Assembly: GCA_963845755.1 (NCBI GenBank)
Contig: CAWJTV010000013.1
Span: 64,001-128,000, forward strand
From: an uncultured Planctomycetota bacterium
GTDB taxonomy: Bacteria > Planctomycetota > Planctomycetia > Isosphaerales > Isosphaeraceae
Reading direction: 5' to 3'
DNA length: 64,000 bases
The notes under the pieces were generated by a model. That model did no database searches. It was given only the letters and a program-made list of their open reading frames with translations, and had not been told where the DNA came from. Within the stretch, counting starts at the first letter, position 1. Every line of letters begins with the position of its first letter. Of the stretch, positions 32,907-44,070 are shown one piece after another. The position numbers and the translations under genes were made by a program.

Positions 32907-33526
32907 CTTGATGGTTAGCGGGCGGCACAGGCTCCAAGGGCTCCTGATCAGGATATTCGGGCCGAGAGGATAGGAAAACCCGCAAGACCGGCCATCCGCG
33001 TAGCCGGAACGGGCATGCAGTCACACGGAAGAGGCCTGAACTGGCTCGGGTGCCCATCGTCTGAAGAGGTTCAGGGGCGGCGAAGTCTCACGTCTCAGCC
33101 CGCGATGACCTGGCCTGCACCCAACGGCCTGGCCGATTCCTCACTCGCCCCGGGCGAACGGCTCGGCGGGGAAGTCCAGGTCCATCATCAGAACTCGGGA
33201 GTCGGCACGGGACCGAATCGGGTCCAGGCCGAATTCGACTCGGAGGAGATCGGGGTCCCGAAAGCCGCCGGCTCCGACTCTTCGAAGGATGGCCATCGCC
33301 TCCTGGGCGTGCGACCTTGCTTCCGTGTGGGAGACCTTCGATCTCGACCCTCCGGCGAGCCCCGACCGGGCGCCGTGGCAGCACGCCCAGAAGATGGTCG
33401 GCTCGCTTTGCCCGGCGGATTGGCGGCGTAGAGCTCCGCGGCCCGTCGCCAGTCGGCGGCGCCGGCGGCGGCATCGCCGGCCGCGGCCCTCGCGCCGCCC
33501 GAACGGAGCAGCGTCTCCGCTAACCC

Positions 33527-35015
33527 CAATACCGTTGAAATAGGCGCAAGCCACAGCCTCCTGTTACTTTGGGTTTACTCACGACCCAAGCAACACGGAG
33601 GCCATGACTCGCATGCCGCACGGACATTGCACGCTGCCGCCCGATGGGTCGGGCCGGATCTTGGATCGCTTGGCGGGACTGGAACAGATTATCTCGCCCG
33701 AGGCCGTTCGCCAAGTCCTCGCGGCCACCGGTAAAACCAATCAACGACGTTGCACACTGACCCACGAGATTGTTTGCTGGGTGGTCCTGGCCATGGGGCT
33801 GTTGACCGACTTGCCGATCCGCCAAGTCTTCAAGCATGCACGCCGGCTCCGAGTCGGCGAGGAGAGTCCCCATCGATCCAGCCTGTGTGTGGCCCGGCAA
33901 CGCCTGGGCATCGCGCCGGTCCGCCACCTGTTCGAGCACGTCGTTCATCCTCTGGCCCGGCCCGATACGCCCGGAGCCTTCTACCGCGGGTTCCGCCTGG
34001 TCGGCATCGATGGGACCGTCTACGATGTCCCCGACTCGGAGGCCAACGCCGCGGCCTTCGCGCGCCCTCGGCCGGGCCGCGCGGCGACGGCGCGTTCCCC
34101 CAAGTCCGCAAGCTGAGCCTGGTCGAATTGGGGACCCACATCGAACTGGCCTTCGTGGTCCGGTCGATCGCCCACGGCGAACCGTCGATGGTCGGCGGCT
34201 TGCTCCGCCATCTGACTCCGGAGATGCTCCTGTTGGAGGATCGCGGGTTTTTCAGCTATGACCACTGGAAAACGGCGATGTTGCGGGGCGTCCAGCTGTT
34301 GGCACGCGTGAAAAGCGGCTTGATCCTCAAGTCGATCCAAAACCTGGCGGATGGCTCGTACCTGGCCAAGATTTATCGGGGTTGCTACGACCGTCAGATC
34401 GATCGGGATGGGATCGTCGTCCGGGTGATCCGCTATACACTGGACGACCCGCAACGAGTCGGACACGGTGAAACTCATGTGCTGATCACGAATCTCCTTG
34501 ACGCGGAGCTTTATCCTGCTGAAGAATTGATTATTCTTTATCACGAGAGATGGGAACAGGAGTTGGTCTATGATGAGCAAAAGACCCATCATGATCCGCG
34601 GCGGGCGACCAAGCCGGCACAGATGCGAAGCGAGACCCCGGCGGGGGTGATCCAGGAGATCTATGCGCTGTCGCTGGGTCATTTCGTGATCCGAGCCTTG
34701 ATGGTTGCGGCCGCCGGGACCGTGGGGCTGGACCCGGATCGGCTGTCGTTTCTGGGGTGCTTCCAGATCCTCAAGTGCCGGTTGCCAGAATGCAACAGCT
34801 CGACCCCCGAGGCGTTCGAGGAGTGGTACCAGGGATTGTTGTGGGAGATGCAGGGGGAGCGCACCGATGACGAAATGCGGAGGAACCGGATCAATCCGCG
34901 AGTGATCAAGCGTAAAATGTCCAAGTGGAAAAAGAAACGATCCAAACATCGACACATTCCGCCCTTGAAGAAAACCTTTGCAGAGACAGTGGTTATGCTT
35001 CCTTAAACGGTATTG
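33527..35015 (+). mobile_element. IS4 family insertion sequence, 1489 bp
   Basis: Terminal IRs CAATACCGTTGAA / TTAAACGGTATTG; exact 10-bp TSD CCGCTAACCC at 33517-33526 and 35016-35025. Confidence 0.95.
33604..35006 (+). CDS. IS4 family DDE transposase (frameshift near 34070)
   Basis: ARQRLG, GIDGT, EDRGF, LYHERWEQE (YREK-like), QEIYA, RINPRVIKRK. Confidence 0.93.
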
Positions 35016-38000
35016 CCGCTAACCCCCGTTGATAGGACCCGTTTCCAGGATCGCCCTTGACCAAGGCCTCGCGCAAGTTGAGTGCCCGGTCGCAGTAGGT
35101 CCGCGCCTCGGTGAGTCGGCCCTGCGCCAGCAGGGCCGCCGCGACCTTGGTCTCCCAGCCAGCCAGCGTGTCCCGATGCGAGCGGTTCGTCGGCTCGGCG
35201 GCAACGATCTGCTGTTGAACGGCCGCCGCCTCCACGCAGGCGGGGACCGCCTCGACCGTCCAACCCGCCTTGAGGAAACTCCACCCGAACGTCCCCAGGC
35301 TGGAGGCCAGCCAACGCTGGGACTGCGTATTCGAAGGATTTTCGCCGACTCGTTTTCGCCAGATCGCGACAGCCTCCTCGAACGACTGGCGCGCCTCGCG
35401 CCTCCTGCCCATCCGGGCGAGGGCGTTCCCAGCGATGAGGTGGCTGTACGGCAGATGGATCCGAGAAAGAGAGGAGTTCGGATCGACGGCGAGCATTTTC
35501 TGGATCATCCGCCGCGCCTCGGCCAGTCGTTCCAGGGCCTCGGCCGGGCGGCCGTCGTCGATCAGTTCGGCCGCCAGATTATTCAGGCCGAAGACCAGGT
35601 TGTTCCCCACGGATGTCAGGGCGGGATTGGCCTCGGCCTCTCTCCTCCAGATCGCGACGGCCCGACGCTCCGACACGACCGCCTCGTCGAGCCGGCCCAG
35701 GTCGGCATGACCTCCCGCGATATTGCTATAGAGCTTCGCCAACACGTCCCCGAAACGGTACACGTCGGGCTGGGCGTCGACCAGCCGCTGGTAGATCGCC
35801 GCTGCATCCGTGTTCGTCGCGATCACGTCGGCTGGCCGGCCCGACCGGTAGAAGACATAGCCGATCGTGATATGACTGGCACCAAGCTCTTCCTGGTAAC
35901 GCGTCACCCCGGGATGCTTCCTGACAAGCTCTTCACAAATTGTGCGGGCGCGCTGGGCTGTTTCCAGTTCGGCTCGGGGGTCGGCCATGTCCATGATGGC
36001 GTCATTCAGGGCCTTGGCCAGCAGTGCGCGGGACTCGTCGCCGCCCCGGCCCGCCGCGACCAGGCCCTCGGCCAGGCGGCGCGCCTCCGTGTGAGCCGCC
36101 TGCGTCCCGGTCTTGTCGCCGCTGTCCGACATCGCAACGGCCATGTCGAGCAGGCTCCGGACCACGTCGATCTCGGCCTCGGGCGCGGCACCGGGCCGGG
36201 CCGCCAGCTCCCGGCGCAGCGCCAGGGCCTTGCGGTGGATCGCCAATGCCTGGTCATGGGTGCCGATCTGCCGGGTCAGCGCGGCCAGCTCGAAATAGGC
36301 CCCGCCCAGCGCCGACCGGGATGCCAGGTCCGGCTGGCCTTCCAGCATCTGCTCCAGCTTTTCATAGAAGCCGGCTGCCCCCTTGAGCAACCTGGACCGC
36401 AGGTCGGCGAATTCCTTCTCCTTGAGCAACAGGTCCTCGCTGACCTCGCCGTGGAAGAGCTTGATCGCGTCCATCGCCAGCTCGAACCGCTGACGCTCCC
36501 GCTTATTAGCCGACGCCAACTCGGCGTTTGTCCGCGTCACTCGCCCGTTGGCCGAGGCCAGCTCGGCGTTGGCCGTCTTGAGGCCGGCGTTGGCGTCGTC
36601 CACCTGGCGGTAGGCGGTTGCCAGGTCGTTGTTGGCGTGCTTCAGCTCGCGATTGGCCTGCGCCTGGACGGCCAGGATTCCCGCCAGGCCGACCACTCCG
36701 GCCACCAGCGCGACCACCGCCGCAGTCACCCCCGTACGATGGCGACGCATCCAGCGGCGGGCCCGGCGGGCCCACGGCTCGTTCCAGGCCGATACCGGCT
36801 CATCCGCCATCCACCGCTCGACGTCGTCGGCCATCGCCCGCGCCGACGGGTACCGATCCGAGGGCTGGAAGGCCATGGCCTTCAGGACGATCGCCTCCAG
36901 GGCCGGGTCGATCGACGCGTCGGCCTGCCGCGGGCGGGCGAACTCGCCCCGCTGGACGGCGGCGACCACCTCGCCGAGCTCGCCGGCGACGGGCGGGCTC
37001 CCGGTCAGGAGGTAGGCCATCGTGCCACCGAGGCTGTAAACGTCCGACTGCGGTCCAAGGTCCACGATTTCTCCCCGCGCCTGCTCCGGGCTCATGTAGG
37101 ACGGCGTGCCCAGCGCGCTGCCGGGGAGTGTCTCGACGCTTCCGCTGGCCGACGAGGGGACCAGCGCCCGCTCGCCCGAGTCGGCGCCGGCCTCGGCGTG
37201 GCCCCGTGCCTTGGCCAATCCCCAGTCGACGAGCAGGGTCTCGCCGTGGTTGCCGACGATGACGTTGCTCGGCTTGATGTCGCGGTGGATCACGCCGCGG
37301 ATGTGGGCGTACTCGACGGCGTTGCAGACGTCGGTGAACCGGCGCAACAGCTTGCGCAACTCCAGCGAGCGGCGGCCGGGGTCCGACTGAGTGGCTGGGT
37401 CGGCGTGGAAGTGATCGGCGGCCTCCTTGAGGCTGTCCCCGCGGATGAACCGCATCGCGTAGTAGGGGCGCCCGTCGGCGTAGGCGCCCAGCCCATAGAC
37501 CGGGACGATCCCGGGATGCTCGAGGCACCCGGTGATCTCGGCCTCGATCAGGAAGCGGGCCCGGCTGATCGGGTCGTCGGCGTGTCGGTCCAGGATCTGC
37601 TTGAGGGCCACCTCGCGGTTCAATTCGGCGTCGAGGGCGACGAAGACCGCCCCGAGTCCGCCCTGGGCGTGGGGTCGAAGGATGCGAAATCGTTGCCTGG
37701 CGGTCTCGCCGGTCGTGCGGTCGACGTCGTCCCGGCCGCCGGCTGGGTAGCCGACCGTCCGCTCGGCGTCGTCCCGGCCGTCGTCGGTCCGTCTCTCGCC
37801 CAAGGCGACGTGGCCGAGTGTCCGGCCGATGTCCGGGTCGCCCAGGTTCGTCAGGCTTTCCAGTGTGGACCGTCCGGCGGGAACGGCGGCCAGGCTCGTG
37901 GCGACGTCGCCGCCGTGGGCCTGGACGTGCAGGTCGGCCAGGGCTTCGATGACCGCCCGCTGGGCGACGTTGAGGTGGCCGAGTGCGATCAGGTGGTCGG

Positions 38001-38638
38001 CCAGCGACCGGGACTTGTCGCCGGTCCAGGTGTTGAAGGCGGCCAGGAGCTGCGCAGGCTGGATCAGGTCGTTCTGCAGCGCGAGTAAACCGAGCAGGAG
38101 CTGGCGGTCGGCGGACATCTTGAACTCCGGCAGGACATCGTCGTTGGCCCGTTCCCCACGCCATGAGTGTGGTCCGGATGAGTTTTTTGATTCTAATTGA
38201 TCGATGGACCGGCAGCAGCGCCGAGCATAATCGGAGAGGGAACCTGGGGACATCGTCTACCGGTCCCGGACTGAAATCGGGGCACCCCGATCGAAACGCA
38301 GAGGAGCGATCACAGGCGAAACTCGCTTCCGTGAGCTCGCCCTCTGGCGGCAAGTGGCGGAGCCGGGAGTTGGTGGTTCATGGAATCACGACGCGAAGTC
38401 CGGACTCAGGGCCGTGGAAAAACGCTTGCACGCTTCACTCCGACACGCGGGAGGGACTTCGGTCCGACACCACACGCATTCTTGGGGTAACAATTTGCAG
38501 GCTCTCGCGGCCGGAACAGCTCGAGCGCCTGTCGGATGAGTTGCGCACGGACCAGGACCTCGTTGGGTTGACACGACCCCTTGGGAAGCAGGCGACCACG
38601 GGACGACCCGAGTGTGTCCAACGCAACCGTGAAGCGCT

Positions 38639-42287: not shown

Positions 42288-42401
42288 GTCGGCGTTCGCG
42301 TATTTCGGGGGGCGACTGTCCTGGGAATGGTAGGGCGCCTCATGGTTGCGTTGCACACGCGACCCAGGGTGCTCTGCGAGTACCGATCACAAACCCGTTG
42401 A

Positions 42402-42489
42402 GGAATCCCCAATTCCGGATTCCGGATTCGAGATTCCCGATTCGGGAATCCTTCCTGTTGGGAATCCGGAATCGCGAATCCGGAATCCC
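42402..42489. repeat. Inverted clusters of heptamer repeats (GATTCCG/CGGAATC-like)
   Basis: About 5 copies of nnATTCs followed by about 4 copies of snGAATC, between convergent genes. Confidence 0.75.
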
Positions 42490-42572
42490 TCTGTTGCATC
42501 GACAAAACGTGACTGATTCGTCTCGGTGCTCTCTGTGGCTCTGTGGTGAATCTCTTCGGGTTTGCTCCCTGG

Positions 42573-43806
42573 TCAACGCCACCCATAGCCGTAGAAATGC
42601 TCGGGCGCGACGCGCTCGGCCCGGCTCTCGGTGGCAAGGCTCAGCACCGCTCCGAAGGGTGCTGGGGCAAGGTCGTTGCCCCGGCCGTTGTACTGCGTGC
42701 CTCCCCGGCGGGTCCCGACGGCCACCACCTCGAAGCCGACGAAGCGCCCCTGCTTCCGGTCGAAGCGCGCCGAGCCGAGGAGCTTCATCTCCAGGCCGCG
42801 CTCCTGAACGCTTGGCTTCTTCATGTCGCGATAGCCGCGAATCGACCAGTCTCCCTTTTGTACGGCCTTGGTCCGGCCTTCCAGGCGGAGGGAGACCACG
42901 TCGCCCTGGACTGCCGTGATGCGGCTGGTCAGTGTCGCGTCCTCGATCGCACGCGCCGGGAACGGTGAAGTCTGTCCACGCACGTTGTCGAGGAAATGGA
43001 ACCGGGCGAGTCGCTCGACGAGGGGTCGCGGCACCTCGCGCGTCCGGCCGGGCTCGATCTCCGCGGGCAAGAACTGCCCGGCCTCCTCCTTGGTGAACCA
43101 GGCGAAGTCCTGGTTCCAGGCGTCGGCCCACCGCCCTTGCTGCGGCGGGTTGCGCGGCAAGTCGCGTGTGTTGACCTTCAGGACCAGGCCGCCCTCGGGG
43201 AAGAATCGATCGGCCCGGTTCAACTGTGCGATGTCCAGCGGATCTTCGCCCGAGAACTTACGCCCCTCGGCCTTGAGATTATCCCAATTCTTCAGGGCCT
43301 CACGCAGCTTGCGGGCGACGAATCGCGGGTTATTGTTGTTCCAGGAGGCCAGGAACGTGCCGTCGGCCGTGGTGGCATAGGTCCCCTGACGCGTGCCCGA
43401 GGGCGCGTGCGGCCGGCATAGTGGCCCTGTTCGGCGATCTTCTGGAAGAGCCGGCACTCGGCGTCACTGCCCTTCTGCAGGCGCCCCACCTCGTCGGCGG
43501 CGGGGATGAACTTCGCGGTGAGCTCCTTCACCTCGGGGTCGGTCCAGACAGACTGTCTGGCGATCACGCCGTTGTTTCAGGTACATCCCAGGGGATGACC
43601 GTTCATCGTCCAGAGCAGGATGGGCCGATCGGTCTCTCTCGCCTCATTGATCGCGATGTAGAACGACTCCGCCAGGGGATCTCCAGGTAAGACTCCTCCT
43701 TGACCTGGGGACGGATATAGTCACGCCATCGCTCGAACGACTGATCGTCCAGGACGGGCGCCTGCCCCAGCGCGACGATCGCGGCAAATAGGAACGCGTG
43801 CATCAT
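42573..43806 (-). CDS. Putative secreted thioredoxin-fold selenoprotein (CxU motif, UGA at 43579-43577), two indel frameshifts
   Basis: IPW(R)ESFYIAINEARETDRPILLWTMNGHPLGCT-TGA-NNGVIARQSVWTDPEVKELTAKFIPAADEV is continuous in one frame across the UGA; hairpin 16 nt downstream. Confidence 0.75.
43544..43560 (-). promoter_or_regulatory. Candidate bacterial SECIS element
   Basis: mRNA CCAGACA-GUC-UGUCUGG, a perfect 7-bp stem with a G-leading apical loop, starting 16 nt after the UGA. Confidence 0.6.
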
Positions 43807-44070
43807 TCGCCCGGTCTCCAGAGAAGGATCTCGCTGGCCACTCCGAGACTCGCATTAGACACGGGCCGCATCCCCGTGTGCAAGGGACAACAGCAAATGC
43901 CTCACCCGAACTCTGCCTTCGTGGTTCGCGACTCATCATCGGCGGTCGGTCTGGGTGAGACCCTCGGGCAAACGGGTACCACCTCGGTTGAGATGGCAAT
44001 CAAAGTCCTTCCAAGTTCTTCGGCCAGATCGCCGCTCCGCAGATTCTTACCGCGTCTGCCAGGCATCGAA

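Follow-up and report, generated by a model that had tools for sequence, protein, structure and literature searches.

A probable selenoprotein gene with an in-frame TGA and a conserved hairpin in an uncultured Planctomycetota genome

Does the lone in-frame TGA at 43579-43577 of a 64,000-nucleotide (nt) stretch of planctomycete DNA end a gene, or does it encode selenocysteine (Sec)? The stretch (GenBank assembly GCA_963845755.1, contig CAWJTV010000013.1, positions 64,001 to 128,000), referred to here as the window, carries the sequence in question on its minus strand (Table 1). The original prediction for this locus was a hidden selenoprotein with a C-x-U motif and a hairpin resembling a selenocysteine insertion sequence (SECIS), and both the conservation of the TGA and the covariation of the hairpin agree with it. 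We consider it likely that this is a genuine Sec-encoding gene for an exported redox protein of two domains and that the two breaks in its frame are assembly errors. Our confidence that the family consists of selenoproteins is higher than our confidence in this statement as a whole.

The gene is 1234 nt long, equal to 412 codons with the stop counted, less 2 bases. The minus-strand ATG at 43806 opens the frame MMHAFLFAAIVALGQAPVLDDQSFERWRDYIRPQVKEESYLEIPW, and a shift is then needed near 43670. After this first shift, the frame reads ...ESFYIAINEARETDRPILLWTMNGHPLG-C-T-TGA-NNGVIARQSVWTDPEVKEL... until a second shift near 43405, from which it continues to the stop at 42575-42573. The flanks of the internal TGA are protein-like on both sides (...DRPILLWTMNGHPLG-C-T-TGA-NNGVIARQSVW...), consistent with the earlier description of a protein-like frame around a lone UGA two codons past a Cys. 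The motif at the site is G-C-T-U-N-N-G, i.e., C-x-U. When two intact orthologues (L020 and L019) were compared, changes at the third codon position predominated on both sides of the TGA, with 16/3/23 differences at codon positions 1/2/3 upstream and 36/24/93 downstream.

We examined the TGA column in a scan of public genome contigs with one genome per species, in which 481 relatives were found and 80 loci were kept for column counts. A first pattern located 73 of these loci, and the remaining 7 were inspected by eye. The loci belonged to Planctomycetota and Armatimonadota/Fimbriimonadia, plus single bins labelled Verrucomicrobiota, Chloroflexota, Acidobacteriota, and Glaciecola. The column was TGA in 80 of 80 homologous loci and never TAA or TAG, a result that was not built in, because one of the two search patterns ignored the column. 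Sec was never swapped for Cys among these 80 nearest homologues. An open frame of 306 to 345 codons followed the TGA in 74 of 79 loci, and the five exceptions were either shorter (three) or ran off the contig (two). When 121 genomes from this bacterial family were searched in six frames, 13 gave matches, and every match covering the N-terminal part held one TGA within the aligned region. Among related genomes, the column was likewise TGA, and never TAA or TAG, in all 16 orthologue and paralogue loci. The sequence G-[HN]-P-L-G-C-T-TGA-N-N-G was retained in the same 16 loci, both in the orthologues and in at least three clades of paralogues, which share only 26 to 35% identity with them. Paralogues are present, for example, in the related genomes G059 (2 contigs) and G111 (6 contigs), each 99% complete. 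The original prediction had proposed asking whether homologues keep TGA or Cys at this position; the nearest ones keep TGA throughout, and Cys occurs further out, as described below. Sec is apparently required family-wide, given that all 80 loci keep it, while Cys75 was lost in 3 of them.

The perfect stem CCAGACA-GUC-UGUCUGG that had been described 16 nt past the UGA was located at 43560-43544. We aligned the hairpin from 80 sequences, with the TGA as columns 1 to 3 and the helix formed by columns 19 to 26 with 30 to 37. The helix was paired in 85.5% of cells, compared to 22 to 47% when the partners were slid by 1 to 3 columns. Not one of 500 shuffles equalled the real alignment in pairing, double changes, or covariation score; these counts overstate the support, because the aligned sequences are related. 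The apical pair was G-C in 26 sequences, A-U in 24, and G-U in 8. Where Gln CAG is changed to Arg CGG, the Ser codon that follows has C in place of U at its third position; because this compensating Ser change is synonymous, it points to the RNA and not to the protein. In the paralogue clades, the hairpin is 4 nt closer to the UGA, has the loop CGUG[CU], and was paired in 90.7% of cells, with compensatory changes at 4 of 6 pairs. The consensus loop of the orthologue group is G-G-U-C-N. These alignments indicate that the hairpin is kept by selection on the RNA. It resembles the SECIS inside the open reading frame of Escherichia coli fdhF in being a coding-sequence hairpin shortly past the UGA and in the G-U that opens its apical loop. 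The fdhF loop likewise reads GGUC, and the loop described here lies approximately 4 nt further from the UGA than that of fdhF. The distance rule for a hairpin after the UGA is that of the bacterial SECIS (bSECIS) literature. No SECIS model of Rfam was matched, the sole match being a chance microRNA with an E value of 8.7.

The Sec machinery, which the original prediction had suggested looking for in the genome, was found in full, with selA, selB, selD, and tRNA-Sec all present (Table 1). In carrier genomes, selA was detected in 12 of 13, and the exception is 76% complete and in 1110 contigs. Because selA is common in the bacterial family (86 of 121 genomes), its presence in the carriers is consistent with Sec decoding and not discriminating.

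The product had been described as exported, and the N terminus was hydrophobic in 13 of 13 complete homologues. AlphaFold 2 (AF2) modelled residues 2 to 12 as a low-confidence helix. The segment is probably a signal peptide and the protein probably exported, as judged from these sequences. The AF2 model of the intact orthologue L020, made from a 14-row alignment, had a mean predicted local distance difference test score (pLDDT) of 78. The best VIA-align match to the thioredoxin domain of this predicted model was 3f9u_B (Z 11.8, root-mean-square deviation 2.5, 116 aligned), in agreement with the thioredoxin fold originally proposed. Further VIA-align matches were Thermus thioredoxin (11.0), AGR3 (10.0), DsbH (9.4), the UAS domain of UBXD7 (8.3), and FAF1 (7.5), with nine chains at a Z value of at least 8. 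The modelled domain is thus closest to the exported DsbD-gamma-like/DsbH/AGR/UAS subgroup. In the model, a single thioredoxin fold spans the TGA, with the strand of residues 63 to 68 before it and helices after it. Sec77 falls within the loop between that strand and the next helix, which is the usual place of thioredoxin-fold redox motifs.

The C-terminal half was beta-rich in the full-length model. When modelled alone, the C-terminal domain formed a closed barrel of long antiparallel strands (pLDDT 94.4, predicted template modelling score 0.89). Its best VIA-align matches were NspA (Z 7.1) and PagL (6.9), within a group of small outer-membrane barrels at Z 7.1 to 6.2 and PsbO-like rows. We do not assign the domain to the outer-membrane proteins, since the best Z values are within the range reached by unrelated models. 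Foldseek gave no match to this domain at an E value of 0.001 or less. Sequence-based searches were similarly unproductive. No Pfam or NCBIfam family matched above threshold, and the gathering scores of PF13899 and PF03190 were not reached (best E values, 0.018 and 0.0045, respectively, with weak matches to each family in 5 of 14 members). For the piece from the window, the score was 14.2 bits, compared to a Pfam cut-off of 27. A sequence profile search of the PDB gave 0 matches at an E value of 10 or less. In the ESM Atlas, residues 20 to 185 of the full-length homologue P0114 gave matches that were all below 0.9, to hypothetical or Thioredoxin_7 clusters.

We propose that SelB, with Sec-tRNA(Sec), would read the UGA at 43579-43577 as Sec, and that the hairpin 16 nt downstream, inside the coding sequence, would direct this recoding as a bacterial SECIS. 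The product would have approximately 411 amino acids (aa), with an export signal at the N terminus, Cys75-x-Sec77 in a thioredoxin-fold domain, and a C-terminal closed barrel. After export, the protein would most likely work as a thiol/selenol oxidoreductase in which Sec77 is the reactive nucleophile and Cys75 resolves it as a selenenylsulfide, and the barrel may hold a substrate or partner.

Table 1. Coordinates and basis of the features discussed; positions are those of the window unless another source is named.
Feature	Position	Strand	Basis
Whole gene, 411 sense codons allowing two one-base gaps	42573..43806	-	ATG 43806-43804, stop TGA 42575-42573
N-terminal hydrophobic segment MMHAFLFAAIVALGQAPVLDDQ, probable signal peptide	43741..43806	-	Sequence
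First one-base deletion, TGGCG-GAG vs TGGCGTGAG or TGGCGGGAG in orthologues	43669..43671	-	Orthologue alignment
Predicted thioredoxin-fold domain, orthologue residues 38-184	43257..43695 (approximate)	-	AF2, VIA-align, Foldseek
TGT codon of Cys75, two codons upstream of Sec	43583..43585	-	Cys in 77/80 loci
Thr codon between Cys and TGA	43580..43582	-	Sequence
In-frame TGA, putative Sec77	43577..43579	-	TGA in 80/80 + 16/16 loci; Cys in 10/23 full-length database relatives
SECIS-like hairpin CCAGACA-GUC-UGUCUGG	43544..43560	-	Apical loop 43553-43551, 16-nt spacer after TGA, perfect 7-bp stem
Second one-base deletion, CACGC-GCCC vs CACGCGGCCC	43403..43406	-	Orthologue alignment
Predicted C-terminal beta-barrel domain, orthologue residues ~185-411	42576..43256	-	AF2, 79-sequence alignment
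selA	Source genome		406 bits
selB, split by frame breaks in assembly	Source genome		298 bits plus wing domain
selD	Source genome		376 bits
tRNA-Sec	Source genome		78 bits, anticodon TCA
Second candidate selenoprotein, loci L018/L139	G000 contig C23:48773-50698	+	Motif D-D-E-R-C-U-G-Y, >640 aa

We additionally examined how the family is represented in databases. A search with the C-terminal piece returned 346 proteins, and nearly all of the 120 matches listed were 300 to 335 aa long. Five of 13 retrieved proteins begin with V/M-IARQSVW, at the GTG that is present four codons past the TGA. These entries appear to be gene calls cut at the TGA, as expected from the earlier estimate of a product of approximately 410 aa that callers of open reading frames divide; most database homologues start just past the TGA. 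A profile search of 1.84 billion cluster representatives (50%-identity clusters) gave 3801 representatives at an E value of 0.001 or less and 755 at 1e-30 or less. Among the best 150 of the 3801, 127 begin to align at profile position 85 or beyond, downstream of the Sec column, in nearly every case from the first residues of the protein. The N-terminal domain is covered by the remaining 23. The column holds Cys in 10 of the 23 full-length representatives, with C-x-C in six and x-x-C in four. Together, Sec forms, Cys forms, and forms without the redox site are the usual picture of a selenoprotein family.

In relatives without Sec, the two-domain module lies behind a Ser/Thr kinase domain in 5 proteins, behind a FecR domain in 1, and before a SecDF P1 head in 1 (P0124, P0125, P0131, P0132, P0218, P0259, and P0219 carry such fusions). 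Because of these fusions, the module fits a position outside the cytoplasm, and they suggest that it has a further role there as a sensor or accessory domain. The homologue P0114 (404 aa, full length) has W at the Sec column, in PLACVWNNG. The gene caller may have translated a TGA as Trp here, under a code in which TGA is Trp, or the codon may be a real TGG.

Several observations weigh against the reading proposed here. The folding of a 66-nt segment gave a z score of -1.58, and 15 of 200 shuffles folded at least as well, so that the hairpin is no thermodynamic outlier. Perfect 7-bp hairpins with loops of 3 to 8 nt occur in the window at 1.19 per kb per strand. The feature nevertheless goes beyond chance, because the TGA was kept in 80/80 and 16/16 loci and the hairpin was kept with compensatory changes. 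Cys75 was replaced by R, A, or S in 3 of the 80 loci (L091, L101, and L121), and the Cys-Sec couple is therefore not universal. The column held neither Sec nor Cys in 13 of the 23 full-length representatives, having A, G, N, D, S, E, or R, indicating that the scaffold also serves non-redox roles. The AF2 confidence was below 50 at residues 78 to 83, just past the Sec site, and the predicted geometry of the site is therefore not established. No neighbouring gene was conserved or pointed to a pathway; the commonest neighbour cluster occurred in only 4 of the 80 loci, which gives no operon clue. Finally, contigs of sequencing run X1 that are identical to the window stop short of both frame breaks, and among the sequencing runs, none contained more than 0.30 of the words and no reads of the source sample were found.

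This last point bears on whether the copy in the window is a recent pseudogene, with real deletions, of a true selenoprotein family. Both deletions stand in the assembled sequence, and the X1 contigs end before both sites. Compared to three intact 411-aa orthologues, the window has exactly two one-base deletions, at approximately 43670 and 43405, close to the indels near 43668 and 43400 of the original prediction. There was no further indel before the last codons. Nucleotide identity to the intact orthologues was 94.8% for L020, 90.4% for L021, and 83.0% for L019, and apart from the two gaps, no other stop or indel was found across 1234 nt at 94.8% identity, which argues against decay. Among soil metagenome and metatranscriptome contigs from related strains, 5 of 5 that cross 43403 (runs X2, X3, and X9) and 1 of 1 that crosses 43669 (run X3) carried an extra base; stretches without contig cover carry no information. 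Essential genes of the same assembly are broken in a like manner, with rpoC (G000:C34:567489-571586) and selB (G000:C29:294598-296489) each in three frame pieces with two frame switches. The selA gene is split likewise in several genomes of relatives that combine few contigs with low completeness. Because rpoC and selB are broken alike and the relatives carry the missing bases, we attribute the breaks to the assembly. One-base indel errors seem to be numerous in it, and they may also explain its completeness of 87.9%. Both frame breaks are most likely one-base errors of assembly and not decay, and we regard a true pseudogene in this strain as unlikely. Contigs of relatives from RNA libraries span the TGA (X9, 43293-43620; X2, 43156-43582), which is compatible with transcription, short of proof.

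A different question, raised by the SelN-like label of the original prediction, is whether the protein is a bacterial member of the selenoprotein N (SELENON) family. As in SELENON, Sec lies beside Cys in a thioredoxin-type domain, here close to the first strand, and UAS domains of the same fold subgroup were among the structural matches (UBXD7 and FAF1). A weakly related paralogue on contig C23 of the source genome (Table 1) has D-D-x-R-C-U-G, which resembles the SELENON site. The SELENON site, S-C-U-G, has adjacent Cys and Sec, whereas the motif in this family is C-T-U, found in 77 of 80 loci, with adjacent C-U in 0 of 80. The type II anchor of SELENON is absent here. The better structural matches are bacterial DsbD-gamma/DsbH-type domains. 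SELENON was absent from the Foldseek and VIA-align fold lists, which carries no weight either way, and a literature search gave no relevant paper on bacterial SELENON homologues or SELENON structures. The abstract of PMC7474598 agrees with a Sec near Cys in a thioredoxin-type domain of a protein outside the cytosol and describes an EF-hand in SELENON. In Pfam, no EF-hand family was matched at an E value of 1 or less in 14 members, and no other SELENON feature was found. We consider membership of the SELENON family very doubtful.

The remaining alternative, that the TGA is an ordinary stop between two genes, one for an exported peptide of 76 aa and one for a distinct protein of 330 aa, with a chance or regulatory hairpin, would account for the annotation of the downstream part alone (300 to 335 aa), for the GTG four codons past the TGA, and for the unremarkable hairpin energy, but it is extremely improbable given a column that is never TAA or TAG in 80/80 and 16/16 loci, uninterrupted full-length relatives with Cys at that column, one predicted thioredoxin fold across the TGA, and hairpin covariation that takes in a synonymous site.

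Positions 42565-43896 of the window share 94% DNA identity with a copy of the gene from another genus (G071:C3:4569632-4570965). In a synteny comparison with this 94.8%-identical G071 copy, the gene alone matched, and the flanks shared nothing. Locus L063, in a bin labelled Acidobacteriota, holds a copy with 91% protein identity. Either recent transfer or mis-binning accounts for the copies in G071 and L063. Just 3' of the gene, at 42400-42520 of the window, there is a cluster of GGATTCC/GGAATCC palindromic words, and similar words follow the G071 orthologue; a dispersed palindromic repeat and a terminator are both conceivable. The contig depth in run X1 was very high at 42400-42453. Elsewhere in the window, 33521-35030 has approximately 20 matches in genome G071, with about 81% identity, and 36150-38115 has many, with about 72% identity. 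These two segments are multicopy elements or large paralogue families.

The family is large, as the count of representatives indicates, and comes from soil bacteria. Since nearly every public record of a Sec form is cut at the UGA, the catalytic domain is missing from the databases, and the selenoproteomes of soil Planctomycetota and Armatimonadota are under-counted. Because Sec was never replaced by Cys in the 80 nearest homologues, the family is a good case for studying what Sec does that Cys cannot. Assemblies with few contigs and many frame breaks can also hide real genes behind false frameshifts.

Compared to known systems, the thioredoxin-fold domain is most similar to the Thioredoxin_7, Thioredox_DsbH (DUF255), DsbD-gamma-like, and AGR domains, to which it is related in fold (3f9u, Z 11.8; 2ju5, Z 9.4; 3ph9, Z 10.0; 7tkv, Z 9.2). 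Members of that group are exported or periplasmic, as the protein described here probably is. However, they have C-x-x-C, while the family here has C-x-U after a longer loop, N-G-H-P-L-G, as well as an attached beta-barrel of 225 aa, and its Pfam scores are below the gathering cut-offs.

Among bacterial selenoproteins, the VPGUxxT thioredoxin-like (seleno)protein type 2 (NCBIfam NF041383) is also thioredoxin-like. Its model gave weak N-terminal matches to two paralogues (E value of 1e-4 at 22 bits and 9e-3 at 15.7 bits, with a cut-off of 275) and did not match the window gene's orthologue. Its motif is V-P-G-U-x-x-T, in contrast to G-C-T-U-N-N-G here. We rejected membership of that family, as the scores were far below 275 bits and the motif is different. 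No selenoprotein model of NCBIfam was matched by the family. NF041383 appears as "OS_HP5" in a table of PMC13188914, a 2026 review of which Table 1 lists 119 selenoprotein families. In that table, we found no entry with such a motif, domains, or Pfam families, and the supplements of the primary papers may list the family under another name. The family is apparently widespread and uncatalogued, and it would add a C-x-U, two-domain, and probably exported type to the known bacterial selenoproteins.

The second candidate selenoprotein, on contig C23, provides a closer comparison within the same genome. Its TGA was kept in every match covering the region, across 16 of the 121 related genomes. Its homology to the family in the window is weak, with an E value of 4e-3, and of about 1e-8 to the paralogues, and it matched no Pfam or NCBIfam family. 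The two proteins share a signal-like N terminus and a ...P-x-x-L-W... strand followed by Sec. In contrast, the C23 protein has an adjacent C-U-G, a different C-terminal part, and another hairpin sequence. One could speculate that the C-x-U family of the window and the C-U family of C23 form the bacterial stock of eukaryotic SELENON, with the Sec-free module acting as an outward sensor of Ser/Thr kinases and anti-sigma factors, an idea that we consider unlikely. If such a bacterial origin were true, the active-site chemistry of SELENON could be studied in culturable Planctomycetes.

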